The position numbers and the translations under genes are program-made. A model generated the notes under the pieces. The model made no database searches, was not told where the DNA came from, and saw only the letters and a program-made list of their open reading frames with translations. Below, piece by piece: positions 1 to 38,234 of a stretch of DNA of 38,234 bases (positions are counted from its first letter, which is position 1; each line of letters starts with the position of its first letter). The stretch is from a virus (taxonomy: Duplodnaviria; Caudoviricetes): the IMG/VR virus record IMGVR_UViG_3300032225_001651, positions 1 to 38,234 of that record. One strand, given 5' to 3'.

Positions 1-88
1 GTTGCCTGCATCTGATTTGTTCTGCCTCAAATTACCCAAGACTATGCCACTCAGAATCACAATAGAACTCATCCCTCGCGGCGACGAA
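1..88 (+). repeat. Terminal direct repeat, left copy (circularisation overlap)
   Basis: gttgcctgcatctg...ctcgcggcgacgaa identical to 38147-38234. Confidence 0.95.
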
Positions 89-370
89 TCGCGCAAACGG
101 AAGCTCGCCGTCGTTGATGTCGAGAATGATGGAACGGCTGGCGACGGTCGCGGCAACGGTGAAGTCGGCAACTACCGAGTTGAAGCCGCTGGAGACTGCG
201 GTGAAGCGGGATGGGACGACTTCGCGGCCTTCACCATCGGCCCTCTCCCGCGAGGAAACTACATCGACACTTGCGCCGAAGTGATGACCGCTCTGCACTC
301 GGCTCATTGCCCGCCCCCAGGATCTCGCATCGCAGGGCAGAACGTCAAAAATCAGGCACGCGACAAATGA
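44..370 (+). CDS. Hypothetical protein, ORF of integron-like cassette 1
   Basis: ATG at 44 within track ORF 2..370; lies between GTTCTGCC (19-26) and GGCAGAAC (336-343); C-terminus reads into the attC-like arm. Confidence 0.75.
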   Translation: MPLRITIELIPRGDESRKRKLAVVDVENDGTAGDGRGNGEVGNYRVEAAGDCGEAGWDDFAAFTIGPLPRGNYIDTCAEVMTALHSAHCPPPGSRIAGQNVKNQARDK

Positions 371-422
371 CGCCATTTCCCCCCATTGCTAGGCCGCGTT
401 GCCTGCATTTTTCTTGTTAGCC
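337..422 (-). other. attC-like recombination site B (86 bp)
   Basis: Minus strand: R'' GGCTAAC, AAGAAAA, L'' ATGCAGGC, AACGCG ... CGCGT, L' GCCTGAT, TTTTGAC, R' GTTCTGC; imperfect inverted repeat with two extra bases on the L'' arm. Confidence 0.8.
367..420 (+). CDS. 17-aa mini-ORF crossing the attC-like arm (MTPFPPIARPRCLHFSC)
   Basis: ATGA overlap with stop of 44..370; TAG stop lies in the GTTAG box. Confidence 0.35.
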   Translation: MTPFPPIARPRCLHFSC

Positions 423-452
423 CTTCCCTGAACTTCCAACCAACCTAAAGCC

Positions 453-701
453 ATGAAAATAAAAGCGACACAATCATACGAAAAGGAAAGAGACGAAACC
501 ATTACGCAATACGTCGAACGCTGCCTTGACGGTAGCGACTACGACAGCGGACAATTAGAGACAATTGCTCGAACTGGTGGCAACAATAGCCGCGCAATCA
601 GCAGGCTGATCGAAGTCCTCGCATCAAAAGGACTGCTTACGGCTCCTGAAATCACTGGCATCGTTGGCTGTGAAAACTTGCAGGCAAAATTCTTGTGCTA
701 A
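453..701 (+). CDS. Hypothetical protein, ORF of integron-like cassette 2
   Basis: 82-aa ORF between GTTAGCC (416-422) and GGCGAAC (742-748). Confidence 0.75.
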   Translation: MKIKATQSYEKERDETITQYVERCLDGSDYDSGQLETIARTGGNNSRAISRLIEVLASKGLLTAPEITGIVGCENLQAKFLC

Positions 702-741
702 ATCTGGCGTTTTGGAATCACGGGCGCAAACTGTTCGGAAT

Positions 742-761
742 GGCGAACAAAGCATTATCTG
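742..761 (-). other. attI-like simple site bounding the cassette array
   Basis: Minus strand CAGATAAT-GCTTT-GTTCGCC: L box, 5-bp spacer, GTT R box; same geometry as attI1 (CCCTAAA-ACAAA-GTT). Confidence 0.6.
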
Positions 762-802
762 ATTCATATGAGAATTAGGCGAAGATTAGCATCTTTGCAG
801 AT

Positions 803-832
803 TTGCCTACCCATTGACTCTACGTGTATAAT
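803..832 (+). promoter_or_regulatory. Candidate sigma70-type promoter upstream of terS
   Basis: TTGCCT (803-808), 18 bp, TATAAT (827-832), followed directly by CGAGGAAACAATTA. Confidence 0.45.
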
Positions 833-848
833 CGAGGAAACAATTACC

Positions 849-1217
849 ATGCCAGCACTCAAGAACACACGTCACGAAGCTTTTGCACAAGCAAAGGCCA
901 AGGGCATGTCATCAAGTGAAGCTTACGAAAAGGCAGGGTATGCAAAAGACATAGCTCATGCCGCTAGATTGGCCTCAAAAGGCACTGTTAAGGCCAGAAT
1001 TGAGGAATTACAGGCCAAGATTGAGACTGAATTCGTGTTAACTCGCATGGAATGGCTCAACGAACTCAGGGATATTGCCACAAAAGCCAAGAAGGATTCT
1101 GATTACTCGGCTGCTAGAGGTGCATTGAGAGAGATTGGCCTAGCAATGCCGGGGTGGTATTCGCCAGAAAAGAACGAAGTGGACGGAAAGCTTGAAATTG
1201 TAATCAAGAAATTGTGA
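849..1217 (+). CDS. terS: Terminase small subunit
   Basis: LKNTRHEAFAQ...AYEKAGY...AARL...VKARIEEL N-terminal pattern; overlaps terL start; ATG 849 preferred over 768. Confidence 0.85.
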   Translation: MPALKNTRHEAFAQAKAKGMSSSEAYEKAGYAKDIAHAARLASKGTVKARIEELQAKIETEFVLTRMEWLNELRDIATKAKKDSDYSAARGALREIGLAMPGWYSPEKNEVDGKLEIVIKKL

Positions 1218-6650: not shown

Positions 6651-6680
6651 GCGTTATCGGGATTCCGATAACGCTTTTTT
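6651..6680 (+). terminator. Intrinsic terminator after scaffold gene
   Basis: GCGTTATCGG-GATT-CCGATAACGC perfect 10-bp stem followed by T6. Confidence 0.85.
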
Positions 6681-6682
6681 AT

Positions 6683-6710
6683 TTGCGCAAATCGAGGAAA
6701 CAACTATTAT
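6683..6710 (+). promoter_or_regulatory. Candidate capsid promoter with CGAGGAAACAA box in the spacer
   Basis: TTGCGC-AAATCGAGGAAACAAC-TATTAT (16-bp spacer), immediately after the terminator; same architecture at 22310-22337. Confidence 0.6.
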
Positions 6711-6834
6711 AGCAGTAGCCATAAGCTGAGACCCCACGATTGGGACTATTGAAGCGGGCGCGTCGCACTTCTGACCCGCATTCGCGGCTTATCGGGAAAA
6801 GACGGATTCAACCAAAATCCAATTCTCTTTTTCT

Positions 6835-12504: not shown

Positions 12505-14499
12505 ATGCCTGAAATCCCTTTATTTCTTCAAGGTCAACAAGTCCAGACACGTGGGCCGGGTGGCTTGATGCCGATGGACACGGAACGACGCCCACGGGTG
12601 GACTACTCCGGCTTGAGTGCGGCGGCTGGGCAAGGTGGGCAAATCGGCGCGCAAGCCGTGCTTGCTGGGCAGCATCCCTTGGCTAATGACTCCGGCGCTC
12701 GCGCTATCGAGCAAGGCACGATGCAAGTAGGGGGCGCGATTGGGCAAGTCGGCCAAGTCTTCAGCACGCTCGCGGATAAGGTGCAACAAGCGAAGAACAT
12801 TGCCGACGTAGCCGACTCAGAAAACAAGATGCAGGCGGCTCTTGCTGAGCATGAAGCATGGAAACAACAGAACCCTGACCCGTCCGGCTGGATGCCTCAC
12901 CTACAGGAAACGCTGAAGAGTGCGCAACAGAACATCTTGAGCAATGACCAGCTTTCACCGATGGCAAAAGACCATTTGGCGCTGTCCTTTGCAAAGACAG
13001 GCGGCGAGGCTACCAATCAAACCATGGTGCAAGCGGCCAAGGGGCAGTTTGATCGCGCACGCTCAAGCTTAATGGCGCAAGCTGAATTAGCGGCTGATTC
13101 AGGCGATTTTACAGGCGCTAAAGGTATCGTTGCTAAAATGGTCGCGGACGATTACTTGCCAACGGATCAAGGGGTAAACGTAAGTTTCAGACTTCGCGAC
13201 AAATCCAAAGAGTTTTATCATGCTCAACTTGAAATCGCGGCGGCAAACAAAGATGAGGCGGGCGCGCAAACCATCCTTGATGCTGGGCAGGCGCATGGAG
13301 TATTCAAGCCTTATGAAGCAGAGTTACAGAAAGTGACGACTGTTCGCAAGATCGCACAGAACAAGCTTCGCGATGACTGGACGGCGGCGATTGTTAAAGA
13401 TCCCGCTGAAGCATCAAAGCAACTCGCGGCCCGTGATGATGAGGGTAACTTCACGACGGCACCGGATTTGTCGCCAGAACTGCGAGATAGCTTATTGCAG
13501 AACGGAAAGCGGATGATTCAGACTTACCGAGTCGATGAAGCGGAAGAGCTAGATAACAAGATACAAAGCGGCGAAATCACCAAGCTGTCAGAACTGGAAG
13601 ATCACTTTAACAGCCGCAAAACCCACCTTCCGTTGTCCACTAAACAACAGTTCATCCACCGCATGAAGCAGGGGTTGCCGAATGATCCCGTCGCTTATAC
13701 GGGCATGTTTGGCGAGATTGCAGGGCTGGACTACAACAAAGAAGACCCAGACGCTTTGATGAAAGTGGCAGCGGCCAAAGAGAAGATCATCAATAACTTT
13801 CAAGGGCCATACCGTGCCACGCTGGAAGCGCATCTTGCGGACTCTGAGAAGATGGCTCAAGAAAATGCGCCAAAGCTGAAACTGACACGCGGCTTGGAAA
13901 AGTTAATGTCGGTTGATTTCGACGCTGGCGCGTTCAATCCGAATAATGAACCAACTCTCAAACCGATTGGTAATGCTGGAGAGCTTGACGCTCAACACAA
14001 GTCACTCATTGAGGATCAAATCACGCGGCCTGACGAACTGAAAACCAAGTTTGACGCCTTGGTGAAGGGTGACACTGCATTGCTTCCTAAGCCCAAGGAA
14101 GGCGCTGCCATTGTGGCAAATCGCAAATTTGGAGACTCGGCTAAATCGTTCCTTGGCTATACAACCTTTCCTGAGAAGCCGACACCTACAGAACTACGCA
14201 AAATTGCGAAGTGGGTTCTTAACAATGAAACTTTCGCAAGCACGGGCGGAAATCTTATGGTGAAAGATTTGTCCGTTCAACGTGCTGCCGTGCAACGCAT
14301 GGATGACGAACGGGCAGCCATGCAACAATGGATAAGCTCGCAACCAGCGGGAACTATTACCATGCAAGATGTGCTGAAAAAATACAACGCGGATATGCAC
14401 CATGAAAAGGATGCTGCCGCGCAAGACTTCCTCAAGGCTAAAGCATCGCCCTTCAACGGCACAAACGCTCTCTTCGGCTTCGGCCCTGACTCCCCATGA
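12505..14499 (+). CDS. Internal virion protein (gp15-like)
   Basis: ATG at 12505 right after the previous stop; MPEIP start, helical, synteny. Confidence 0.75.
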   Translation: MPEIPLFLQGQQVQTRGPGGLMPMDTERRPRVDYSGLSAAAGQGGQIGAQAVLAGQHPLANDSGARAIEQGTMQVGGAIGQVGQVFSTLADKVQQAKNIADVADSENKMQAALAEHEAWKQQNPDPSGWMPHLQETLKSAQQNILSNDQLSPMAKDHLALSFAKTGGEATNQTMVQAAKGQFDRARSSLMAQAELAADSGDFTGAKGIVAKMVADDYLPTDQGVNVSFRLRDKSKEFYHAQLEIAAANKDEAGAQTILDAGQAHGVFKPYEAELQKVTTVRKIAQNKLRDDWTAAIVKDPAEASKQLAARDDEGNFTTAPDLSPELRDSLLQNGKRMIQTYRVDEAEELDNKIQSGEITKLSELEDHFNSRKTHLPLSTKQQFIHRMKQGLPNDPVAYTGMFGEIAGLDYNKEDPDALMKVAAAKEKIINNFQGPYRATLEAHLADSEKMAQENAPKLKLTRGLEKLMSVDFDAGAFNPNNEPTLKPIGNAGELDAQHKSLIEDQITRPDELKTKFDALVKGDTALLPKPKEGAAIVANRKFGDSAKSFLGYTTFPEKPTPTELRKIAKWVLNNETFASTGGNLMVKDLSVQRAAVQRMDDERAAMQQWISSQPAGTITMQDVLKKYNADMHHEKDAAAQDFLKAKASPFNGTNALFGFGPDSP

Positions 14500-17400
14500 T
14501 TGACCCAAACGAACCACAAGCGCCCATTGAGAACGGGGATAATCTCCCGTTGCCCGTTGACTTGGTAGCGGCTCAAAACATCCGCTCGTTTTACACAAAA
14601 CCAAACTATGGTTTCAATGAAGGCGATATTGCCAGCTTTAATGATCTCACTTCCCACGTTCAAAACCCTGAACAGGACAGGGCGCGATTCTTCAACAATC
14701 AGTTCCTGGCACAGCACACAGGCAAAGATGCCAGTGAAATAGCGGCTTCCTCAGATTCATGGCAGAATGCCTATGCAAAGCAGAATTGGGGCAAGGATGC
14801 CGTCACGCCTAAAGAGTTCTTCGACCACAAAAAAGCAGACTACGAACTAGATGACAGCCTGTTCAAGCACGCTTCAGACGCGGCATTGCTCGGCACTCCG
14901 CCTGCGCAAGCTTACGGCGAATGGCAGACAGCGAACGAAGCGCATCCCTCGCTGAATACCCCGCTTTTTGCAGATTCGCACCGTGCCTATGATGCGGCCT
15001 TTAAACGCACGGAAGCGGTAGTTGCTCCCTATCGTTCGGAAATCCTCGGCGCTCTGGCTGAAGCTGACAGCCCCATGAGCGCGGCGGAACGTCTTGCCAA
15101 GCTGCCAAAGGACGTTCAACCCGCGGCCTTGCAGATGATGGCGGCACTTGCTCAAGCCAATGCGGGCAAGGGTGGGGAAGGACTCGCGGAAGGCACGGCG
15201 GGCCATTTGATACGGGGCGCAAAGGGCGTGGTGAATGCCTTGGGCACAGGACCGGAACGCATAGGCCTCTTTCATGCTCAAGACGTGCTCTCGCTCGATA
15301 ACGTCTCTGTTCCTGAGAACGTCGGCACTGACCCTAAAGCAGTCGCGTCATTTTTCCAGAATCAAGGCATGACGGGAGACGCGCAATCTTCCATGTCCGG
15401 CTTGCTCACTGGTTACACCAAGCTTTCGCCTGAACGAATCAGCGCGGCTCGCGAACAGGTAGACCAAGGGCTTTCTACAATGCGGATGGCGCAACAGATA
15501 AAGGAGATGGATGAAGGCATCATCAATCCTCTGGTTGCTAAGAACTTTGCACAAACGGCAGCGTATGGGCTGGCTGACTTCAGCCCATGGATCGCGTTAG
15601 GCGCGGCGGCTCCAACGGCTACGCTGCCCGTTCTCACGGCCTCGTTGAAAGAAGATCAGTATCAGAACTTCCTTCGTCAGAACCCCGGCATGGACGAACG
15701 CACGGCAGATGCTCTTTCGACCGCCTCGGCTATTCCATCGGCGCTAGCAATGGAATTCGGCAGCGTCGCCGTGATGAAAGGTGTTCCAACACTGGCAGCA
15801 ACCATGCCTTCGCTGGCTCGCTGGCTGAATCAACCTGTATTGACCGCTTCGGCTGGGCTGGTAAAGACGGCGCAAGATACCGCGATACACTCTTTGGGCG
15901 GATTTGTTGGCATGAAAGCAAGCGAAGCTATGCCTACCATTGTTCAAGGTTTGGCTTCTGCTCTATCTGAGGATGTCCCTGAAGTGAAATGGGATGAGAG
16001 AATAGCAGAATTTAAGAAAATCCAAACCAACGGGGAAATGCTTGTTCCGGTGGTGCTCATGTCGCTTATCAGCGCCGGCCATGCGAGTTTCCAGCAAGTA
16101 GGACACTTTAAAGAAATGGCGAGCAATGCCGATGCTTTGCGCGCCGTGGGTGGATTCGATGAAAGCCAAGTGAACAAAATCACGCTGGCAGCGAGCAAGG
16201 GTGACTTGCAAGGCGCTCAAGACCTCATGCGCGAAGGCTTCAAGGCTACGGGGCTGGATCAAAAGGAGCTGGGCGCACAGCAACAAGTCCTCGCGAAGAA
16301 CTACGCCGATTTGATGGAGCAACGCAAAGCAGGCATCGAACATCTCCAGAACACGGGCGCGGCTCCTATCTTCCAAGCAAACGAAGACGGAAGCGCAAGC
16401 CTTACATTCAAAGACGGCACGAAGGCCAGCTATCCAGACAGGCAAAGCGCAACGGACGCGCTTTATAACCATATCGAACAGCAAAAGGTAAACTTGCTCT
16501 CAAGTGTGCGCGAACATGGGGCGCGAATGCTGGCGAGCGTTCCGGCTGGGGAAGAATACGCGCTCAACTATCATCCTGAGAACAGGACGAATATCAACGT
16601 CGAGAACGACGCGGCTGAAAAAGCAGTCCAGAAAGCGACGGCGGATGGATTGGACGAAGCGGGCATTGAAGCTGCGCGGGTCGCTGCCATTGAGAAAGTG
16701 AAAGCTTCGATTCAAGAGCGTGCCGACATCGGAAAGCGTCTTGGGGAAGAGGACAAGAACAACCAAGCGGGTTACGATCAAACCAAAGCCCTCGTCGATG
16801 CAACGGCGCAAGATAGCGACTCGCGGGATGTGGCTTATCAGATTCTTGGCGCGAATCGCTCTGAACTGAATGGGGAAGTGATGCGGCACACGCTAGACTT
16901 CTACAACGGTCACTCGGTTCTTACGTCGGCGGAAGAATTCGCAGAACGGGCGGCATCTCGCATGGTCGCTGATCCAAAACAACGCGCTTGGCTGCATAAT
17001 GCCTTGCGTGAAATCGAAGCACGCTCTCAAGCTCTCGGCGCTCCGTTGGAACTGCTCGGCGCGAAAGATGACGCACAAGTCACCGATGCAGATTTAAAAG
17101 AGGGTTGGTCGCACTTGGTAGCCAGTGAGTTTATCAACCAAGCTGGCACAGATTCACGACTCAAAGCAGGCGCTAAAGATGTGGCAGCGATTCAAGCACA
17201 CATTGCCAGAGTCAGGCAAGCGATTGACGAAAGCAAGGCATCGCCCGCGATGGTCGCAACGGCTCACTTCTTTGATTCGTTTATGAAACGGGCGGAAGTG
17301 CTGAAACAGCTTGCTGACTCCGGCCAATTACCTGACGACGTTCACGGGATGCTGGCGAAGTCGCTGGGCCTTGATGAACAGCACTTGCACGAACAAAGCG

Positions 17401-20400
17401 CGATAAAGGAAGCCGAAAAGCTCAAGCAAGAGATGGCGGCGAAGGGCTTAGAGTTGAGCGGGGAAGATGCGCCGTTCAGCATGGTTGACGCAAAGGTAAT
17501 TCAGGGGTATCTTGAACTTAATGATATTCCGCTCGAAAAACAGGAAGGCGCAAAAAAAGCTATTAGCAAAGCGCAAAAAGCTTCTAGCAAACCCTACAGT
17601 TTATCATTACCCGAAACCAGAGGAGTGGATAGGGGAATCATCAACAGCGCCCGAGAACGTCAAGCAGACGCTTATCGTAGATTAGTTCTTGGAGACACTG
17701 AGGGAACACGCAAAAACATTGCTGAAGGTGTCCCAATGTCTTCATTGATGGGGCAATTTATAGGGCGCGAAATTCCCAACTTTGATATTCGCGGGGCAGT
17801 AATTGATACCCCTAAAGATTTAGCCCTGCATATTTTGGCGCATCGAACGCCTTATTTTGAGTCACTGAAAGTCATTGTATTAGATGACAATTCACAGGTA
17901 ATTCACTCTCAGATTGTTCATGTTGGTTCTCTAAATGAAGCTGTGGCTAGTCCGCAGAACATATTAGGCATTGTAGATGCGGCAAAGATGCTAAACCCTG
18001 ACGTTCCTGTAGGTGGGTTTATGATTTCTCATAATCATCCTTCAGGTGATCCAAGTCCAAGTGATGCAGATAGGAGAGTGACTAAATTGCTTGAGTCAGC
18101 TTCTCAGATGTTAAATATCCCTTTCGTGGATCATGTTATCACCAATGGGAAAACTTATTTTTCATTCAGAGAATCCCTTTTAATGGTTGGAAATGGAGAA
18201 TTTACAGAAAATGGCAAACTCCGACTGTCTGAAATTAAACCGTCCCACAAATTTGGGGATTTGGCCGATTTTGAGGCAATCCCAATGGATGAACGTAAAA
18301 AACTAAGTCAGCCAGACCATTCAAAATCAATCATTGATACGCTACGGACTACAGACCCGAACCAAATCCATGCCTTGCACTTAGATACTAGGCTAAATTT
18401 AATTGGTGTTACAAGGCACGAACTGGAAACCAACAAAGTTAATTCAGTTAGCCAAATTCTTGATAATACCAGAAAAATGGGTGCCTACGGTTTTATTGTT
18501 TCATTTCCTGAAAACGTAAGTAATGAAAATGCAGGAAGCTACATCTCAAGATTAAGAGATGGGGCAAAACTACTTGAGACAAAGTTCTTGGATGCTTCAA
18601 CAAAAGAGATGCATTCCCGCGTTGAATTTGGCTTGATGGAAGATTCTAAACCATTTGCGCAAGCTGAAAGCTACTCACTAGCTCCTCACAATCTCGATTC
18701 CTCCTTTGCAGGCATTTACGACGCTTTCAAGCGCTCGCCAGATTTGCGGCGTAACATTGGGCTAGAGGTAGCTCGGAAGCTATCGGCTCGGCTGAATGGA
18801 ACGGATGGAAGCGAAGGGCTGCACGATCTCGTTGCCGCGTCTCGCTCTCGTTCGGATCTTCAAAAAGAATCCGGCGTGCGTCAAGCTCTCCGCGAGCGTG
18901 AACTTGTAGACGAGGGCATGAGCAAGCTAACACCGGAAACGATGGCGGCTTTTCATTCTGATTCCGCGATTGCCGATGCGAGGAAACAACCAGTTATCGA
19001 AAACCTCATTCGTCCCGATGCCAACGCGATAGCAGGCGTGAAGGGTCGCATGATGCACCCGTCTAGAGCGGAATTGACCTTAAAGGGTGAATACGAAGAC
19101 GCACCGGAAGGCTTGCCCCCGTGGTTTTGGGGTGGCAACCTCAAGCCGGATCAAGCGGCACAAGAGCTATTCGAGCAAGGTTTGATTCCAGATGCTTACC
19201 CTTCGACCATGTGGGCGGCGGTTGAATCCGCGTTTAAGACAGCAAACGCCAATAAAGCGGACATCCGCAAGGCTCAAGATGCCGTCAAAGGCGTAGAACG
19301 CACAGCCAAGACACAGGCTCGCGATGAATCGAAGGCTTGGTTTGATAAGGCGGTGAAAGACCAGCCAAGCAACAAGCAAAAGCTTCTCGGCTGGCTTCGC
19401 ACGCTGGACGCTCTCACCTCGGCTTTGCCTCCAGAAGTGCGCGCCAAAGTCGGCGGCTACACAAAGCTAGCCAGTCTCACCACGGATGAAGCGCGCTTAA
19501 AGGAAATCGTGCGCCGTTCGGAAAAGATGCAGGTCGAGCTTGAGAAGTATCTCCAAAATGAATTTAGAGGGCAAATTGACGATTTGCTAGACAAGGCCAG
19601 CTCAGAGAAAAATGGGGCAGGCGTTCGCATTTCAAAGAAATTCACGGCAGAAGGGCAACACTATTTTGATGAAGCTAAAAGGGTTTCTGACATGTCGCCC
19701 ACTGAACTTAGCGCCCATCAGGAGAAACTCGAAAACGATCTTGATACGCTTTCGCAAGGGAATGTTGATCCAGATTTACAAGATCGCTTGCTACAGGAAA
19801 TCGGTATTGCCTCGGTTTATGGTAACTTGGACAGTAAAGATGCTGAAGGGTTAGCCAATGCTCATGCGGAATTACAAAAAGCTTATGAAGAAGAGCGGGG
19901 GATTAGGCAATCAAAAGACACGGCGCGTAAAAACTATCTAAAAAGCATTGCTGATAATGCGATTGAAAAGCTGGGTAACTTGAGAAAGATTGAAGCAGTT
20001 GACCTGCACAATGCAAAAACCAAGCGGAAAAAAGGAGCTGCCACGCTAACAAATGCCTTCAACAGCTTAGTGGATGGCACGCTGTCCACCACACATGACA
20101 TTCTTTCCCGTGTGCTTGGTGTCGATGCTGAAGCAACCAAAGAATTTGGTGACATCCAACAACGGCGCGCAAACCACAAAGCCAAAGAAATTGAGATTGA
20201 GCTAACAAAATCTTGGGAGGATCATCTAACTAAGCTCTATGGCGGTGGTGTAACAGCGCGTTACAGGTGGATTTCCAAGCTTGCAGCCTTACGGCAAACG
20301 GAAGAAAAGACGGGTGTTTTTGTTCAAAGTGGACGCAAAATCGAAACCAAGCCCGTAGATATAGAGCGGGCGCGTGAAGTCGTAGCTTCTGGCGATGGAA

Positions 20401-22277
20401 GCAAATACGGGTTGGATAGCGTAGCGGTTAAGCAGCTAAAAGAACAGCTTGCCGCTTTGGATTCTGAGAATGCTGAGAGGACAAAGCAAAATGACCTTGC
20501 GGACATTCGTAACAAAATGCTTTCCGATGGTGAAGAGCCAGAATCAAAAAAACGCTTACGCAGTCCTAAAAGTCTCGAAGTCAAAAACGAACTCAACAAG
20601 GGAACTCCTGTAGAGCATCACTTAACTCAGTTTGAGGGACTTAAAGCCCTTATGTATTGGGAACAAAAACGCACACGGGCCTTAATGGAAAATGAAGGAT
20701 GGGGAGAGGAAAGTATTGCTCAACTCAAGAAGTTTCTTAAACCGGAAACTTACACTTTTCTTCCTTGGATACGATCAGCTTATGATCGTGGTTATAATCA
20801 TGCCAATCCAGTCAATGAACGCATGTTTAATATGACGATGGCGCGAAATAAGGACTATACCCCTATTTCAACGGCGCACGGTGAGAATGAGGCGGAAGGA
20901 TCGGCGCTTGACGCTTTGGTTGCTCCTGTTGGTTTAAGTTTCGGCGCTACGATTGAGCGCGTCCCTCATAATGCAACGCTTCGCATTCCCGACGCTGTTG
21001 ACGAAGTTTTTCAACACTATGCAAAGCTTTCTCATTGGGTGGCGAATGCTGAAAAAATCCGCGATATGCAATCTGTCTTGCTTCGTCCTGAAGTCGTGAA
21101 AGCTATCGAGCTTGCGCATGGAGATTCCGCCGTCCGTTCCATACGTTCAAGGATCGAAGACGAAACTGGAGAGGGACAACGCAAAGCGGCGGGTTATGAA
21201 TGGATTCGGCGTTTAGGTTCATCTTTCCAGAAAATGCGGACTTACAAAGCTTTGGCGTTTAATATCGGAACGCCTATGAAGCACGTTACGAATGTGCTCA
21301 AGGTGGCTGCTGACGAACAAATACCAACATCATCACTTGCTCTAGGTTACGGTAAATTGATTAGTGGCGAGTTACACCGAAACGGATCCATAGATCGCGT
21401 GATGCAATCCGAAACCATTCGTAATCGAATGGAAGCAGGCACGACGCCAGACCAGCGGGTTGCATCAGGCTTTGGCAGTAATGCACACGGGCAATTTGAA
21501 CAGCTTATGACCGATGGCATGAAGGGAATTCGTTATGCAGATGCCAAGTCGAACGGTTGGGGGGCAGCGATTGCTTATGATTATTATAATAACGTTGCGA
21601 AGTCTGATTTAAAAATGCAGCCAGCAATCGCAGACGCTTGGGCGATGGATAAGGTTGATCAGCTTGTTTACCATACGGCGGTTCCTGAAGATATTGCGAC
21701 TCGAACAGGGTTACAAAATAACAAATGGCAAAACCTTGTTTTCATGGGGATGTTCAAAACGCCAGCAGTTAAATGGGCATCAATGGAAGTTCATGCCGTT
21801 TTGCGTGCTTTTGATAGCGCCTCTAAAGGTGAATGGAATAAGTCATGGAGAGCAACAAGAACGGCACTTGTCACTCATTTTGCCGTTGGTGCAATGGAAG
21901 CTACGGTTATGGGGCTTTACCGTTATGCGTTTGTGAAACATGACGCAGAAGAAGCTTGGAGTCCTGAACATTACGGAGAGGCAATGTTGCTCGGTCCTCT
22001 TACGGGAATCGTTGGAGTAAGTGAAATAGCGCAAGAGACGATTTGGAAAATGCTAGGCATTCGTCATAAGCCTAACAACGGGGAAGGTTCTGCGCTCATT
22101 GAAGCCTTGCAACGCGCTATGCGCGGCGAAGCCGCCACAGGAAAAGACAAAGCAAAAGCAACGGCTGAACTCGCGGCTGATACGGTCGGCTTGTTCTCTC
22201 CGGCTACGGGTGTTCTTCCTGCTGTCGCACTTCGTATTTATACTTATTTCGCCAATCTCTTAGGCGCTGATAAATAA
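14496..22277 (+). CDS. Giant internal virion (gp16-like)/polyvalent protein with internal RadC-like JAB domain
   Basis: 2593 aa; last of the internal virion genes; E...HNHPSGDPSPSDAD...DHVI motif at about 17860-18140. Confidence 0.85.
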   Translation: MIDPNEPQAPIENGDNLPLPVDLVAAQNIRSFYTKPNYGFNEGDIASFNDLTSHVQNPEQDRARFFNNQFLAQHTGKDASEIAASSDSWQNAYAKQNWGKDAVTPKEFFDHKKADYELDDSLFKHASDAALLGTPPAQAYGEWQTANEAHPSLNTPLFADSHRAYDAAFKRTEAVVAPYRSEILGALAEADSPMSAAERLAKLPKDVQPAALQMMAALAQANAGKGGEGLAEGTAGHLIRGAKGVVNALGTGPERIGLFHAQDVLSLDNVSVPENVGTDPKAVASFFQNQGMTGDAQSSMSGLLTGYTKLSPERISAAREQVDQGLSTMRMAQQIKEMDEGIINPLVAKNFAQTAAYGLADFSPWIALGAAAPTATLPVLTASLKEDQYQNFLRQNPGMDERTADALSTASAIPSALAMEFGSVAVMKGVPTLAATMPSLARWLNQPVLTASAGLVKTAQDTAIHSLGGFVGMKASEAMPTIVQGLASALSEDVPEVKWDERIAEFKKIQTNGEMLVPVVLMSLISAGHASFQQVGHFKEMASNADALRAVGGFDESQVNKITLAASKGDLQGAQDLMREGFKATGLDQKELGAQQQVLAKNYADLMEQRKAGIEHLQNTGAAPIFQANEDGSASLTFKDGTKASYPDRQSATDALYNHIEQQKVNLLSSVREHGARMLASVPAGEEYALNYHPENRTNINVENDAAEKAVQKATADGLDEAGIEAARVAAIEKVKASIQERADIGKRLGEEDKNNQAGYDQTKALVDATAQDSDSRDVAYQILGANRSELNGEVMRHTLDFYNGHSVLTSAEEFAERAASRMVADPKQRAWLHNALREIEARSQALGAPLELLGAKDDAQVTDADLKEGWSHLVASEFINQAGTDSRLKAGAKDVAAIQAHIARVRQAIDESKASPAMVATAHFFDSFMKRAEVLKQLADSGQLPDDVHGMLAKSLGLDEQHLHEQSAIKEAEKLKQEMAAKGLELSGEDAPFSMVDAKVIQGYLELNDIPLEKQEGAKKAISKAQKASSKPYSLSLPETRGVDRGIINSARERQADAYRRLVLGDTEGTRKNIAEGVPMSSLMGQFIGREIPNFDIRGAVIDTPKDLALHILAHRTPYFESLKVIVLDDNSQVIHSQIVHVGSLNEAVASPQNILGIVDAAKMLNPDVPVGGFMISHNHPSGDPSPSDADRRVTKLLESASQMLNIPFVDHVITNGKTYFSFRESLLMVGNGEFTENGKLRLSEIKPSHKFGDLADFEAIPMDERKKLSQPDHSKSIIDTLRTTDPNQIHALHLDTRLNLIGVTRHELETNKVNSVSQILDNTRKMGAYGFIVSFPENVSNENAGSYISRLRDGAKLLETKFLDASTKEMHSRVEFGLMEDSKPFAQAESYSLAPHNLDSSFAGIYDAFKRSPDLRRNIGLEVARKLSARLNGTDGSEGLHDLVAASRSRSDLQKESGVRQALRERELVDEGMSKLTPETMAAFHSDSAIADARKQPVIENLIRPDANAIAGVKGRMMHPSRAELTLKGEYEDAPEGLPPWFWGGNLKPDQAAQELFEQGLIPDAYPSTMWAAVESAFKTANANKADIRKAQDAVKGVERTAKTQARDESKAWFDKAVKDQPSNKQKLLGWLRTLDALTSALPPEVRAKVGGYTKLASLTTDEARLKEIVRRSEKMQVELEKYLQNEFRGQIDDLLDKASSEKNGAGVRISKKFTAEGQHYFDEAKRVSDMSPTELSAHQEKLENDLDTLSQGNVDPDLQDRLLQEIGIASVYGNLDSKDAEGLANAHAELQKAYEEERGIRQSKDTARKNYLKSIADNAIEKLGNLRKIEAVDLHNAKTKRKKGAATLTNAFNSLVDGTLSTTHDILSRVLGVDAEATKEFGDIQQRRANHKAKEIEIELTKSWEDHLTKLYGGGVTARYRWISKLAALRQTEEKTGVFVQSGRKIETKPVDIERAREVVASGDGSKYGLDSVAVKQLKEQLAALDSENAERTKQNDLADIRNKMLSDGEEPESKKRLRSPKSLEVKNELNKGTPVEHHLTQFEGLKALMYWEQKRTRALMENEGWGEESIAQLKKFLKPETYTFLPWIRSAYDRGYNHANPVNERMFNMTMARNKDYTPISTAHGENEAEGSALDALVAPVGLSFGATIERVPHNATLRIPDAVDEVFQHYAKLSHWVANAEKIRDMQSVLLRPEVVKAIELAHGDSAVRSIRSRIEDETGEGQRKAAGYEWIRRLGSSFQKMRTYKALAFNIGTPMKHVTNVLKVAADEQIPTSSLALGYGKLISGELHRNGSIDRVMQSETIRNRMEAGTTPDQRVASGFGSNAHGQFEQLMTDGMKGIRYADAKSNGWGAAIAYDYYNNVAKSDLKMQPAIADAWAMDKVDQLVYHTAVPEDIATRTGLQNNKWQNLVFMGMFKTPAVKWASMEVHAVLRAFDSASKGEWNKSWRATRTALVTHFAVGAMEATVMGLYRYAFVKHDAEEAWSPEHYGEAMLLGPLTGIVGVSEIAQETIWKMLGIRHKPNNGEGSALIEALQRAMRGEAATGKDKAKATAELAADTVGLFSPATGVLPAVALRIYTYFANLLGADK

Positions 22278-22309
22278 TAATGTTCTACGTGGAACGAGGA
22301 AACAACTAC

Positions 22310-22337
22310 TTGTCAAAATCGAGGAAACAATTACAAT
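22310..22337 (+). promoter_or_regulatory. Candidate tail-fibre promoter with tandem CGAGGAAACAA boxes
   Basis: TTGTCA-AAATCGAGGAAACAAT-TACAAT (16-bp spacer); second box at 22295; ATG 7 nt after the -10. Confidence 0.65.
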
Positions 22338-22344
22338 CAGAACC

Positions 22345-27385: not shown

Positions 27386-27605
27386 CCCGCATCTTTGCAG
27401 GGTGCTTTCCTCCTATCTGCTTGCGTCTATAGGCGCGTGAACGCTCGCGATGTTTCTGCAACGCTTTGGGTGTGATGCGCTCGGCAAAGAACTCTTTCTT
27501 CCTGCGTAGAACCTTCTTCCTAAAAGTGGGGTTCTTTGCGTGGTAGTGGTTTCGATACCATTCCCGCTGATAGGCTCGCTTGGCCTCAAGATCAATTGGC
27601 GTCAT
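27363..27605 (-). CDS. Small basic hypothetical protein
   Basis: 80 aa, KRAYQREWY, Arg/Lys-rich; overlaps the integrase 3' end. Confidence 0.55.
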   Translation of the reverse strand: MTPIDLEAKRAYQREWYRNHYHAKNPTFRKKVLRRKKEFFAERITPKALQKHRERSRAYRRKQIGGKHPAKMRASRSIPK

Positions 27606-28710
27606 CGCTCAGATAATGGTTACTGGTCGTTGTCGTCGTCGTGTGTCCTAGCGCCTTGGATGCTTCCTTTACGCCAGCAAGCCGCGCCGTGATTGCATCC
27701 TCAGTCAATTCAGCCAAGTGGTCGGCGTAGAGTCCGCGCAATCGTTGCAAGGGTTTCTGCACGCTCGGCATGAATGGCTTGAGCCACTTCTGAGGCTCGA
27801 ACGCAAACCAGCGTTCGCGACTCTCCCACACGGGCAAGACAAACAGTTCATCTTTGGGTGTCGCTTTGAGTTGGCGCGCTAGCTCGGGGTCTAGGATTGT
27901 GGCGCGATAGCTGCGTCCTGTCTTCGTGAGAAAGTCCTCCTCTGGCCTGTCCCGTAGCTCGACGACTGGCTTGCCTCGGTGCTCTGCATACCATCCGCCA
28001 CGTAGCGCCATGATTTCGCTACGGCGCAAGCCAGCAAAGCGAGCCGTCGCTAGTGTTCGCCAATCGGGAAGCGTGCGCGGATTAGTCGCCAGCGATTGAA
28101 TTGTTTCTAGGATCTCCGATTGATCCAGTTCAGCGGGCGGACGTCTGACAACGGGCAACCAATGAATGTCACAAGCGTCTTCTGGAATAATGATTCCTTC
28201 TTCCTTGTAGAGCGGGCGCAATCGCTTGATGAAGATCGAGGCCGCGCAACGGACAGCGGTATTGATTGAGGCATTGCCTAGCCTGCGCTTTGCAAGATCG
28301 AGTTTCCCGCCTTGGCGTTTGGTCATAAACTCCCGCCATAGCTTCGGGCCTATCGCATCAATGCGAACGTCTTTTAGATCGCGGCCCCATGCTTCCCTTA
28401 CGATGCACTTGAGCCACATCACATTCAAATCTTCGGCCTTCTGGCCTGCTCGCTTGGGCATGACACGATAGAACTCCACAACATCGGCGAGCGTGCGATA
28501 GCAGGGCAGCGTGGTTTTCTGCGCTGCTTGCTCAAGATGCTGACGTGCCAATACTTTAGCCACGTCTAGACTAGCCGTTCCCGTTCTAAAGTTCACCGTC
28601 CTGCCCTTCGCCCTGGATCGTAGACGCCATGTTCCATTGTCCAAGGCGAGCGGGTATTTGATGCCGTTGTGAACCAACGAGGCAATTTGGGGCAATTTTG
28701 GGGCGCGCAT
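27592..28710 (-). CDS. int: Tyrosine integrase
   Basis: AGLRRSEI (R), TKT (K), QRLR (variant HxxR), LGH...NHY (H, Y); adjacent to a tRNA-derived attP. Confidence 0.9.
   Translation of the reverse strand: MRAPKLPQIASLVHNGIKYPLALDNGTWRLRSRAKGRTVNFRTGTASLDVAKVLARQHLEQAAQKTTLPCYRTLADVVEFYRVMPKRAGQKAEDLNVMWLKCIVREAWGRDLKDVRIDAIGPKLWREFMTKRQGGKLDLAKRRLGNASINTAVRCAASIFIKRLRPLYKEEGIIIPEDACDIHWLPVVRRPPAELDQSEILETIQSLATNPRTLPDWRTLATARFAGLRRSEIMALRGGWYAEHRGKPVVELRDRPEEDFLTKTGRSYRATILDPELARQLKATPKDELFVLPVWESRERWFAFEPQKWLKPFMPSVQKPLQRLRGLYADHLAELTEDAITARLAGVKEASKALGHTTTTTTSNHYLSDDAN
28686..28706 (+). repeat. Integrase arm-type sites, left pair
   Basis: TTTGGGGCAA (28686) and TTTGGGGCGC (28697). Confidence 0.65.
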
Positions 28711-28792
28711 AACTTTAAAAGTTACCTGTTTGATAACATCGAAATATAACGTGTTATCTCCGAATGTCCCGCGAAATCAACCTTTGGAGAAG

Positions 28793-28849
28793 TGCCGGCG
28801 GCCGGACTCGAACCGGCACTATATCACTATAACAAGATTTTGAGTCTTG
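28793..28849 (-). other. attP core: 3' portion of tRNA-Leu(CAA)
   Basis: Minus strand CAAGA-CTCAAAA-TCTTG anticodon arm, long variable arm, GCCGG-TTCGAGT-CCGGC T arm, CGCCGGC-A; 5' acceptor strand and D arm absent. Confidence 0.9.
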
Positions 28850-30994: not shown

Positions 30995-31773
30995 ACCAAT
31001 CTCCTGAAATTAACGAACTGGCTAAGGCGCTAGCATTAACTCAAGCCGTTGGCTTAGTCGCTATTGAGAACACGAAGAACTCTCACCTCAACAGCAAGTA
31101 TGCCGATTTGGTGGCGGTTTATGAAGCAGTGCGTGAACCGATGGCGAAGAACGGCTTGGCGCTCGCCCAATTTCCCGGGCAACTCCGCGAAGTCGGCGGC
31201 AAACATTGCTTGAGCATTACCAATATGCTTCTGCATGAAAGCGGCCAATACATCTGCGTCGAAATGGAAATGCCCGTTCCTCCTGAACAGAAGGGCTTGA
31301 ACCCTGCGCAACTCTTCGGCCTTGTGCTGACTTATGCGCGGCGTTACGGCCTCTGCTGCGTTCTTGGGGTGGCTACTGGTGACGATCAAGACGCACAAGA
31401 AGCTTGGCGCAAGAATGAGCCTCAACGGATGCAGGCAACGGATTCTTCCACATGGCAAGAACTTTACGACTCGGGCGCGTGGCGTAGCTTTCCCGCTCCT
31501 GACGATCAGGAAATGAGAAACCTTGGTGACTTGGCTGTCTCTGAACTAATCCCGCTCATCAAGACGAATCTGGCGAACGGTGCGAGCAATCAAAGCTTGG
31601 TGGCTGCTCACCTTAGCATTGTGGATGCACGGGCAAAGGCTCGCGGTATGTCGCTGGTTGAGGCGATGAAGGCGGCACAGTGGAACGGGGCTTTCGATCT
31701 GGCGCAACTCAAGCCGGATGAAATCTTGGTGTTAGCTAAGGCAGTGGACGCTTTACCGAAAGGCCAGCCATGA
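30991..31773 (+). CDS. erf: ERF-family ssDNA annealing protein
   Basis: INELAKAL...SKYADL...LLHESGQY...GLVLTYARRYGL..VLGV..GDDQD. Confidence 0.9.
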   Translation: MNQSPEINELAKALALTQAVGLVAIENTKNSHLNSKYADLVAVYEAVREPMAKNGLALAQFPGQLREVGGKHCLSITNMLLHESGQYICVEMEMPVPPEQKGLNPAQLFGLVLTYARRYGLCCVLGVATGDDQDAQEAWRKNEPQRMQATDSSTWQELYDSGAWRSFPAPDDQEMRNLGDLAVSELIPLIKTNLANGASNQSLVAAHLSIVDARAKARGMSLVEAMKAAQWNGAFDLAQLKPDEILVLAKAVDALPKGQP

Positions 31774-32759
31774 GCGAGGAAACAACTACTTGCCCAAGCT
31801 TTGCGCCATATTTTGACGTGAACACGCCGCTACCTGCGGAACGTTCACCCGATTACAAGGGTTACATGCTCGGCCTGAAAGACACGGTGTATCATGCTCA
31901 CCCTGCGCTGAATGCCTCCACGCTGAAGCATCGCACGCCTGCGGAAATGCTGCATTCAATGACGAATCCAAGCGAGGTAAGCCATGAAGCTTTGGCGCTC
32001 GGAACGGTGGTTCATTGGGCAACGCTGGAACAATGGCGTTTCAAGGAATGGGAAAAGCACATGATAATTTGTCGCACCAAGGGCTTAGACACGCAAAAGG
32101 CGGACATCGACCGTGCAGAGAATCCTGATAGGCTAGTTGTCACTCCTGAGATTGTGGAGACTGCGCACAGGTGCCTTGATGCCGTCCAAGCGAACGCTAC
32201 AGCAATGGCTCTGCTAGATGGTCGTGACCCTGAAGACAGCTACGGCACAAAGTCACCAGTGACCAGCGAAGCAACGGGCCTTTATTGGGATGGGGTGATT
32301 TGGCGAAAGTGGCGCGTTGATCTTCTACCGCAAAAGCTGCCTGTCTTGATCGACGTTAAGAGCACGCGGGCGCATCCGTCTGAGTGGCGCAAGGAATGCT
32401 TCAAGCTGGGCTATTATGAACAGGCTGTTTACTATGCTCATAACCACTTCCTGCTGACAGGGGAATGGCGCGATTGGGCTTGGATCGTCGTAACGAACAA
32501 AGCGCCGTTTATGTGTCGCGTCGTGCGTATGCGTAACCTCCGCAAGTCGGACCCGCTTTATGAAGAAAGTATCTGGCGCTCCACACGGGAAAAGCTCGGC
32601 CTTGATGACAGTCTGAGGATCGGCCGAATCCCGCAATTCATCGCTGCGGCACAGGAAACAGAAGCGATGCGCGCAAGGGTCAAGCTTACGCCTGCCGTGC
32701 TGCGGTCCATTTGGGTAGGCTACGAACAAGAGTCACCTATTCACGAAATCATTGTTTGA
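31770..32759 (+). CDS. RecE/exonuclease VIII-like PD-(D/E)xK nuclease
   Basis: YHAHPALNASTLK, ALGTVVH, SE, KWRVD, IDVKST, GYYEQAVYY. Confidence 0.88.
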   Translation: MSEETTTCPSFAPYFDVNTPLPAERSPDYKGYMLGLKDTVYHAHPALNASTLKHRTPAEMLHSMTNPSEVSHEALALGTVVHWATLEQWRFKEWEKHMIICRTKGLDTQKADIDRAENPDRLVVTPEIVETAHRCLDAVQANATAMALLDGRDPEDSYGTKSPVTSEATGLYWDGVIWRKWRVDLLPQKLPVLIDVKSTRAHPSEWRKECFKLGYYEQAVYYAHNHFLLTGEWRDWAWIVVTNKAPFMCRVVRMRNLRKSDPLYEESIWRSTREKLGLDDSLRIGRIPQFIAAAQETEAMRARVKLTPAVLRSIWVGYEQESPIHEIIV

Positions 32760-36632: not shown

Positions 36633-37349
36633 ATGAACGTTATCACTCTCACCCCTGAAGAATTGGCTGGCATTATCGCTAATGCCGTGGCTATCGCTTT
36701 GTCTTCGCGTGACAAAAAGAGCACAGGAGCAGAGCGACAAGCACGTTACAGAGAGCGTCACAAAGCGTCACAAACCGTAACAGGTGCCGCGAGTGCCGCA
36801 AGTGACGCGAGTGACGTAACAAGTGACGCTTGTGACGCGAGTGCCGCGAGTGCCGCAAGTGACGCGAGTGCCGCGAGTGCCGCGAGTGCCGCAAGTGACG
36901 CGAGTGACGTAACAAGTGACGCTTGTGACGTAACAGTGACGCCTAAACCCTCCCCCTCGCCCCCTCCCTCCTCCTCTCTCCCCAAACCCCTCTCTCCTCC
37001 GCCCACCCCCGCACCCCCACCCGCACAACGCGCGAGCGCACCCGTGCGTAAGGAGCCACAGAAAAACCTCATTCCTGAGACTTTTGATCCTCAAGCCGTT
37101 GAAGCGCTGCAACGTTGGGAAGCCTACAAAAAGCAGCGAGGAGAGACTTACAAGCCAATGGGATGGGAAGCGCTTTTGAAGCAGTTAAGCGCCTACCCAA
37201 CCGTTACAATCGTCCATGCAATCGACAATTCGATGAGGTCCAACTACGCCGGGCTTTTCCCCGAAAAAATCAACCAAAGAAACGGCAAACCAGCGCCGAA
37301 ACCGCAACAACCAAACATCCTTGAAGGAATGAAAGTTTTTAAATTATGA
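36633..37349 (+). CDS. Replication initiator (lambda O-like) with internal iterons
   Basis: TGAERQARYRERHK, repeat linker, Pro-rich stretch, C-terminal W.AYKKQR...NYAGLF; precedes a DnaC-like gene; ATG 36633. Confidence 0.75.
   Translation: MNVITLTPEELAGIIANAVAIALSSRDKKSTGAERQARYRERHKASQTVTGAASAASDASDVTSDACDASAASAASDASAASAASAASDASDVTSDACDVTVTPKPSPSPPPSSSLPKPLSPPPTPAPPPAQRASAPVRKEPQKNLIPETFDPQAVEALQRWEAYKKQRGETYKPMGWEALLKQLSAYPTVTIVHAIDNSMRSNYAGLFPEKINQRNGKPAPKPQQPNILEGMKVFKL
36784..36943 (+). repeat. Tandem iteron-like array, 17 GTG(A/C)CG units; probable replication origin
   Basis: 9-mers gtgccgcga, gtgccgcaa, gtgacgcga, gtgacgctt and 11-12-mers gtgacgtaaca(a); inverted gcgtcac copies upstream. 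Confidence 0.85.
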
Positions 37350-38074
37350 TTGATACCAAATCACAAGTTGAGTGCCTCTGCGCTACCTGCAACCAGACCT
37401 TCTACGACGAGGCTATGTCTATCGGTGGCAGGGTAATCAAGCCTAACCAATGCGAAGCCTGCGAGATAGGCGAGAAAGGCAAAGCTACGGCCAAGAATGC
37501 GCGTCCAGTGATCGAGCTAGGCGAGGACTGGCCGGAACGTCAGAAAGGAGCCATAGCAAACCGCAAAGGACAGGCGCTAGAGGTTGCGGGAATGTTTTGG
37601 TCGAAGATGGTTTGCAAAGGTCAAGCGACGATCATTCTGTTTGGCGACAGGGGGCGGGGTAAAACGTGGATAGCCTGCTATTGGGCTTACCTTCGCGGGC
37701 AAGCTGGGGATGATACGGGGATGTATCGCACGGCCTATGACTTCTTTCTTGAGATACGGCAAGCTTGGCGTCAGACATCCAAGGTTTCAGAACGTGAGGC
37801 AATGTTGCCCTATCGCAACACTCCGTTTCTTGTTTTAGATCAGCTTCACCAATGCCGCGCCCTTGATGCTAGTGGCGGTGACAAGGCAGCAATGTGGGAA
37901 CGCATGGCGCTTGCTGACTTACTCGACTATCGGTATCGCGAGCAACTTCTCACGGTGTTGATTGTAACGCTGCCAACCATTGAGGAGGTAGCCGAAGTGA
38001 TTGACGCTGACATTTGGGAGCGCGTGAAAGAGTCTGGCGGGCTTGTGGCCTGTAATTGGGAAAGTTACAGATAA
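37346..38074 (+). CDS. DnaC/IstB-like AAA+ helicase loader
   Basis: CxxC...CxxC, Walker A GDRGRGKT, Walker B FLVLDQL, LLDYRY, ends WESYR. Confidence 0.85.
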   Translation: MIDTKSQVECLCATCNQTFYDEAMSIGGRVIKPNQCEACEIGEKGKATAKNARPVIELGEDWPERQKGAIANRKGQALEVAGMFWSKMVCKGQATIILFGDRGRGKTWIACYWAYLRGQAGDDTGMYRTAYDFFLEIRQAWRQTSKVSEREAMLPYRNTPFLVLDQLHQCRALDASGGDKAAMWERMALADLLDYRYREQLLTVLIVTLPTIEEVAEVIDADIWERVKESGGLVACNWESYR

Positions 38075-38171
38075 CGTCTTGGATCAGACAACCGCGTTAG
38101 CGAACCCATGAAGACGAATACTGAGAAAACTCATAGAGCCAAGGGGGTTGCCTGCATCTGATTTGTTCTGC
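38069..38171 (-). other. attC-like recombination site A (103 bp, spans the circular junction)
   Basis: Minus strand: R'' GCAGAAC, AAATCAG, L'' ATGCAGGC, AACC ... GGTT, L' GTCTGAT, CCAAGAC, R' GTTATCT; shares ATGCAGGCAAC with site B. Confidence 0.75.
38108..38161 (+). CDS. 17-aa mini-ORF crossing the attC-like arm (MKTNTEKTHRAKGVACI)
   Basis: ATG in the attC loop, TGA in the distal arm; parallels 367..420. Confidence 0.3.
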   Translation: MKTNTEKTHRAKGVACI

Positions 38172-38234
38172 CTCAAATTACCCAAGACTATGCCACTCAG
38201 AATCACAATAGAACTCATCCCTCGCGGCGACGAA
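38147..38234 (+). repeat. Terminal direct repeat, right copy
   Basis: Identical to 1-88. Confidence 0.95.

Follow-up and report, generated by a model that had tools for sequence, protein, structure and literature searches.

We propose that this temperate phage carries an integron platform with no integrase of its own: a phage-specific attI-like docking site joined by three or more attC-bounded cassettes with backward genes, likely built by an integron integrase (IntI) supplied in trans. By "the window" we mean the whole 38,234-nt stretch of DNA that was analysed.

Two attC sites on the minus strand

We built a covariance model from 15 chromosomal attC sites of Verrucomicrobiales integrons, using no sequence from the window, and searched the window unfiltered. 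Two sites stood out, both on the minus strand: site 1 (38069-38171, E = 1.3e-6), which is far from attI and degenerate, and site 2 (337-422, E = 4.3e-7), which has an intact hairpin. The next match had E = 0.06, and an unrelated 34.6-kb phage gave 0 matches at E ≤ 0.1. These are exactly the two attC sites that an initial annotation of this DNA had reported.

When folded, as that annotation had suggested, the two sites gave different results. Site 2 has the full attC box architecture (R'', L'', L', and R', with extrahelical bases on one arm). Its plus strand, which is the bottom strand, folds as an attC hairpin (z = -3.1; 0/200 shuffles equalled it) whose 3' arm has two extrahelical bases. Site 1 has this architecture according to the model, and its minimum-energy structure contains no attC fold (z = -0.05 and -1.2). 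The L box of site 1 has an A.C mismatch, and forcing the R box to pair gives a structure 2 kcal/mol above the best fold. A hairpin scanner scored site 1 at 8.0, which lies inside the shuffle background (0-3 per 38 kb), and we excluded this score from the evidence for site 1.

The R boxes pair across cassettes, as had been claimed, and the box coordinates quoted for this were all correct: 19-26 and 336-343 are exact reverse complements, and 416-422 agrees with 742-748 at 6/7 positions. Within either attC site, the R boxes do not pair with each other. Relatives show the same pattern. Among 15 related loci that we hand-picked as non-redundant, the four bases outside AAC/GTT fully pair (4/4) across a cassette for 34/42 neighbour pairs, versus 2/69 within a site. 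We rejected a REP or terminator reading of the repeats, as it leaves cross-cassette pairing and exact insertions and deletions unexplained. Given the two clustered attC sites on the record, a third that is implied (see below), and no integron integrase nearby, the array has what defines a CALIN (at least two clustered attC sites and no nearby integron integrase).

The supposed circular junction is an assembly break

The window ends (38147-38234) and begins (1-88) with the two copies of an 88-nt repeat, both on the plus strand, and this had been taken for a circular junction. The assembly is in fact broken at this repeat, which is internal, and about 670 bp with a further attC are missing. In run X1, which is possibly the source sample and which we used as assembled contigs and unitigs, positions 1-88 are their own 88-nt unitig of depth 327, while the neighbours have depths of 178-206. 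For comparison, a known two-copy 54-mer has depth 342. A 642-nt unitig of depth 178 overlaps both ends of the 88-mer, so the 88-mer must occur twice in the genome with 582 unique bases between the copies. The true circle is then 38,146 + 670 = 38,816 nt. A second contig with the same cassette-B and DnaC-like proteins is 38,871 nt, which is 38,816 plus a 55-base overlap. The 670-bp segment may otherwise be a free circle at phage depth, but this second assembly speaks against that.

The first copy of the repeat comprises an attC arm, a leader, and the first 15 codons of a gene; about 582 bp that follow it are absent from the record. In the second copy, the L''/R'' arm of a further attC, not of site 1, occupies 1-26; the other arm of this attC is off the record. 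The 30 nt before the second copy differ, and they end like the commonest Verrucomicrobiales attC spacer. The array has at least three attC sites, and is longer than the two sites and two cassettes first described. Its order is dnaC, attC site 1, an unseen cassette, the further attC, cassette A, attC site 2, cassette B, the docking site, and terS. The 414-bp cassette of the initial annotation is an assembly chimaera across the 88-nt repeat that leaves out about 670 bp; the unseen cassette and cassette A together span 1,084 bp. From the missing 582 bases, 30 nt were recovered as a loose end, and we obtained no cassette-A-start protein from the 38,871-nt contig. Other records that were judged to be circular by a short terminal repeat may be broken inside such arrays.

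Low-depth contigs of run X1 contain near-copies of the site-1 attC (window 38073-38158) in other flanks, so other replicons in this sample have the same attC type.

The phage, its host, and its only recombinase

The genome is podovirus-like and temperate, with genes for terS, terL, portal, capsid, and tail proteins from 849 onward. At its end are genes for Erf, exonuclease VIII, a helicase, RusA, a replication-O-like protein, and a DnaC-like helicase loader. The stop codon of the loader gene (37346-38074, plus strand; PHROG 50/3277) falls within the R' box of attC site 1. On the other side of the array lies the gene for the terminase small subunit (terS; 849-1217, plus strand; PHROG 51 and Pfam Terminase_2). 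A sigma-70-like promoter match lies ahead of terS (803-832, plus strand); this is a match to the consensus only, and 2 were found where 1.0 was expected. There was no promoter match on the minus strand within 1-1300. An Rfam scan of the whole window gave 0 matches.

The initial annotation had stated that the record lacks IntI and that its only recombinase already has a tRNA attP, and we agree on both points. A search with TIGR02249 found no match in the record at E ≤ 10, and the missing 582 bp are too short for intI. The sole recombinase is a phage tyrosine integrase (27595-28710, minus strand; PHROG 1), which has no match to TIGR02249 or to IntI structures in PDB. Beside it is a 3' fragment of tRNA-Leu(CAA) (28786-28848, minus strand), which is likely the attP of this integrase. 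The fragment was matched in 95/201 host-order genomes, and three of the four loci that we inspected were tRNA-Leu(CAA).

A Verrucomicrobiaceae MAG contig carries the nearest cellular relative of terL (70% identity). This contig and the attC type are the basis for our host assignment. Neither of the 2 Verrucomicrobia MAGs that carry terL relatives had an IntI match over the cut-off. Queries with the DnaC-like and cassette B proteins recovered no viral loci, and neither did a two-arm attC pattern.

Elsewhere in the genome, the motif CGAGGAAACAA is repeated at 830-855, 6680-6715, 22282-22342, 31772-31797, and about 30150. It precedes several genes (terS, capsid, tail fibre, and exonuclease) and is perhaps a leader or late-promoter element. 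Within the replication-O-like gene, 36784-36930 contains 9-nt tandem units and a two-copy 54-mer, which are likely origin iterons. A protein of 2,593 aa (14496-22277) is of the internal virion type; its sole PHROG match is short and is to an MPN/RadC-like "DNA repair" family.

Mobile cassettes whose genes run backwards

Cassette B (343-747, minus strand) is 405 bp, as had been reported, and is proximal to attI; its R boxes (416-422 and 742-748) pair at 6/7. It contains a gene for an 82-aa protein (453-701, plus strand) with no assigned function, no family or fold match, and 4 homologues besides itself. The cassette A gene (44-370, plus strand) runs through the R' box of site 2 and encodes a protein of 108 aa, also with no assigned function. 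This protein has no Pfam, PHROG, NCBIfam, Atlas, or PDB fold match (the pLDDT of the model was 82), and it belongs to a mobile family with 31 homologues. In five loci (L023, L024, L027, L029, and L031), DNA homology to cassette A is bounded by AAC boxes and the flanks are unrelated. Together with the cross-cassette pairing, this AAC-bounded homology supports the earlier claim that the cassettes were inserted from circles. Homologues without direct attC bounds are found in L025, L033-L037, L040-L043, L047, and L050. One of these, an attC-free homologue in L035 (6001-6327), is present on 28 contigs and apparently follows a gene similar to type I restriction specificity genes.

Comparing arrays also revealed exact gains, losses, and reordering. 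L048 and L049 are 100% identical save for one 271-bp cassette, and L074 and L075 have cassettes in common in a different order.

The direction of the cassette genes had not been remarked on. Orienting host arrays on intI fixes the minus strand of the window as the top strand, so both cassette genes lie on the bottom strand, antisense to the canonical layout. In a canonical integron, genes on the top strand are read from Pc; here both ORFs are on the other strand. Taking the longest ORF as a proxy for the gene, 40/47 linked cassettes are backward in 14 phage and metagenome loci, and by the same proxy 3/12 cassettes are backward in 8 host loci. In a mixed set of 21 viral loci that have the site-1 arm in common, 19/28 cassettes are backward.

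A docking site that is specific to phages

The array ends in an attI-like docking site (742-782, minus strand), with an R box (742-748), a 5-nt spacer, an L box (754-760), and a second L-like box (774-780). The stretch 742-760 does not fold as a hairpin. This is the geometry of a simple site: an R box, five bases, and an L box whose top strand ends in TAAT. The same geometry is seen in attI sites of hosts and phages and in the Shewanella attI printed in the accessible text of PMC9892861. By its layout and its place at the end of the array, we consider this site a putative attI.

A 36-nt element of the docking site also ends the arrays in L003, L004, L113, and L126. We built a pattern from these four sites and the window, and scanning with it identified 22 loci in 21 viral records, of which 16 were new. 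The pattern was found in 0/401 host-order genomes. These results bear out the earlier suggestion of an attI-like platform between the replication and packaging genes. We left out a duplicate locus and a near-duplicate record; of the remaining 20 records, 17 have a linked attC upstream of the docking site. IntI was found in 0/20 of them, including 0/5 that are at least 90% complete. The site in the window departs from the family at 767 and 782, which are both invariant in the 17/17 other sites.

Three of the integrase-less relatives have flanks that are 94-99% identical and different cassettes in between (L138, which is complete, L140, and L144). Homology ends at the far AAC and restarts at the AAC of the docking site. 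By this comparison, cassette exchange in this lineage appears to continue without an integrase of its own.

Other comparisons of the site were less uniform. The far R box of the array (38069-38075) mirrors the L box of the docking site at 6/6 positions, as do 61/200,000 random AAC pairs, yet this symmetry is not a rule of the family: relatives match at 1-4 of 6 positions, and their chains may be incomplete. A profile made from the attI sites of six intI-bearing phages (one with a truncated gene) ranked the window's site only 4th of 1,348 AACs.

Arrays precede terS in the close terL relatives L003, L004, and L005, and in L010 there are attC sites between terS and terL. Six other close terL relatives (L001, L002, L006-L008, and L055) have neither an array nor an empty site before terS; in two of these, about 600 bp upstream is available. 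Given this mixed presence, the content of the locus is variable, as the initial annotation had predicted, and the platform is patchy. In L145 and L146, two inverted copies of the docking site, each with the beginning of the Arg-rich ORF (described next), lie near the end of the contig.

In 16 of the 20 docking-site records, an ORF of at least 85 aa begins at the ATG equivalent to window position 768; one of these ORFs is chimaeric. They belong to one Arg-rich family of 99-120 aa. The protein has no PHROG, Atlas, isolated-phage, or viral-fold match, and it is nearly confined to phages (one weak match in 301 host genomes). By comparison with relatives, the window retains the first six codons of this ORF (768-785, plus strand), cut off and in frame with terS. 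The ORF is also cut off in L131, L133, and L135. Codons 3-5 of the remnant double as the second L-like box (774-780), and most relatives retain TAG in this box though the amino acids vary. The box is a putative accessory binding site.

Possible sources of the integrase

The initial annotation had suggested that the phage borrows a host IntI. Use of IntI in trans seems likely to us from the sequence comparisons: among genomes of the host order, 131/301 Verrucomicrobiales genomes have an IntI over the cut-off, and this order has the same attC family. The host chromosome is the obvious donor, but the IntI of a helper phage could also be the source, and either could serve. A true VchIntIA-like IntI follows attI in G001 (L023:7170-8195) and in L073-L077, which share the cassette pool of the window. 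The best PDB match of this phage IntI is VchIntIA (2A3V), and the integron-specific insertion is present. These complete phage integrons have up to 12 or more backward cassettes, and their attI differs in type from the docking site of the window. Two attI-ended arrays with a truncated intI (G004, L027:3984-4351, and L078, 6994-7144) look like snapshots of intI loss; in G004, a phage tyrosine integrase adjoins the array. We found neither an excision joint nor an empty site in the contigs of runs X1-X3, and contigs drop rare forms.

A proposed mechanism and its rivals

In the mechanism that we favor, IntI from the chromosome of a Verrucomicrobiales host or from a co-resident phage would excise cassette circles from folded bottom strands, and the circles would insert at G/TT of the phage site beside terS. 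The host-only model places the attC polarity on the minus strand and the ORFs are on the plus strand, so the bottom-strand genes would be read by the replication-to-packaging transcript that comes from dnaC, and no Pc would be needed. The degenerate far attC, which holds the dnaC stop codon, would anchor the array. The copy in the window is probably part-decayed, because this far attC is degenerate and the Arg-rich companion gene is cut off.

A bolder version of this proposal, which we put forward tentatively and think somewhat doubtful, is a parasitic phage integron: a phage-specific attI, tended by the Arg-rich protein in place of intI, would hijack the host's IntI and trade backward cassettes that circulate only among phages. 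It is unlikely that the platform is instead a dead relic, a fragment left over from a formerly complete phage integron whose intI was lost, with no further cassette exchange in this phage. Related phages do carry an attI followed by a true IntI (G001 and L073-L077) or by a truncated one (G004 and L078), and in the window site 1 is degenerate, one base differs between the cassette B boxes, and the companion ORF is truncated. But the docking site is of a different type from the site beside intI and never occurs with IntI (0/20), an integrase-less lineage with the same site differs in its cassettes at exact crossovers, and site 2 and the simple site are intact.

Exchange without any IntI seems improbable. 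The genome encodes both an Erf-like annealing protein and exonuclease VIII, and homologous recombination might swap cassettes by using attC repeats as short homologies; the two-copy 88-nt repeat, with its attC arm and 15 codons, is not a site-specific product. However, R boxes complement each other across cassettes (34/42), and the breakpoints are at AAC even between unlike attC sites, which implies circular intermediates cut at G/TT. We give little credence to the idea that exchange depends on the Arg-rich protein or the phage's tyrosine integrase, as recombinase or as essential cofactor, with host IntI dispensable. The Arg-rich ORF does have the position and orientation of intI in 16/20 records and is nearly confined to phages, but its product has 99-120 aa, no PHROG match, and no tyrosine-recombinase fold among viral structures, and the ORF is cut off here and in L131, L133, and L135; the tyrosine integrase has its tRNA attP and no likeness to IntI. 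Least credible of all is that the cassettes landed by chance at a non-classical attG (GWT) site behind dnaC and that the phage has no dedicated platform. GWT sites genome-wide do receive cassettes through IntI (accessible text of bioRxiv 10.1101/2022.09.11.507474), but many phages have the same conserved 36-nt site, with a fixed neighbouring gene, where the array ends, which largely refutes this explanation.

Relation to known systems

Clusters of attC without an integrase are already published for phages; the initial annotation had known of no established description. According to the accessible text of Qi, Rajabal, Ghaly, Tetu, and Gillings 2023 (PMC9892861), there are 17 CALINs among 10,705 phages, and five of six tested phage attC sites recombined with attI1 by IntI1. 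For functional phages, that text explains the clusters without an integrase by capture or illegitimate recombination. Like the window, these CALINs have small ORFs with at least two attC sites and lack an integron integrase. Unlike the window, the clusters of functional phages lack an attI in the accessible text, which reports attI in one case, a cryptic prophage of Shewanella that has an intI of its own; prophage integrons with IntI are also described for Vibrio and Shewanella. The same text describes no phage-specific attI, companion gene, systematic antisense polarity, or exchange between relatives, all of which are seen in the window's group, and the searched text of the supplement does not name Verrucomicrobia. 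In the supplement, a methyltransferase of MW202573 has a KPNV tail, as do genes that run backwards into an attC R' box. This hints that the published CALIN in MW202573 may also be reversed; our covariance model and hairpin scanner found none of its attC sites.

The sedentary chromosomal integrons of Verrucomicrobiales resemble the window in their attC family, polarity rule, and L-5 nt-R geometry. They differ in having intI, in their attI (the docking-site family was found in 0/401 genomes), and in having genes mostly on the top strand, whereas genes in phage arrays are mostly on the bottom strand. Integrons in Verrucomicrobia have been described (bioRxiv 10.1101/030866, accessible text). The complete phage integrons (G001/L023 and L073-L077) have the same pool of backward cassettes as the window, including cassette A homologues, and likewise end in attI. 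They differ in having a VchIntIA-like IntI right after attI and another distal motif; in this place, the window has the remnant of the Arg-rich ORF and terS.

Insertions at attG, or SALINs (Loot et al., bioRxiv 10.1101/2022.09.11.507474), likewise involve IntI acting in trans outside the integron. As far as the accessible text of that preprint goes, attG needs GWT alone, with nothing conserved beyond GWT and short motifs, whereas our site is long, conserved, and reused, with a 36-nt pattern in 21 viral records. In the accessible texts, mobilisation of CALINs in trans is described in PMC11389934, and recombination of the attC bottom strand in PMC11023631. In established integron biology, circles insert at G/TT of attI. 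What is known, then, is that phages carry attC clusters without an integrase and that IntI1 can recombine such sites. In the literature outside subscription papers, and in the accessible parts of the papers cited here, we found neither a phage-specific attI family or docking site nor systematic backward cassettes described.

Implications

A dedicated and reused phage docking site without its own integrase would mean that phages tap the integron recombinase to shuffle accessory genes. Part of phage mosaicism would then have a site-specific cause. The docking site, the attC sites, and the host IntI form a set of substrates that can be tested directly.

Integron cassettes are known as a bacterial store of resistance and anti-phage genes, and two 2024 preprints concern the defence genes that host cassettes carry. 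If the parasitic version of our proposal is true, then the phage transcript would express backward phage cassettes, which the host's Pc would leave silent, and capture by the phage would silence host defence cassettes. One recombinase would then serve two gene pools that are kept apart.
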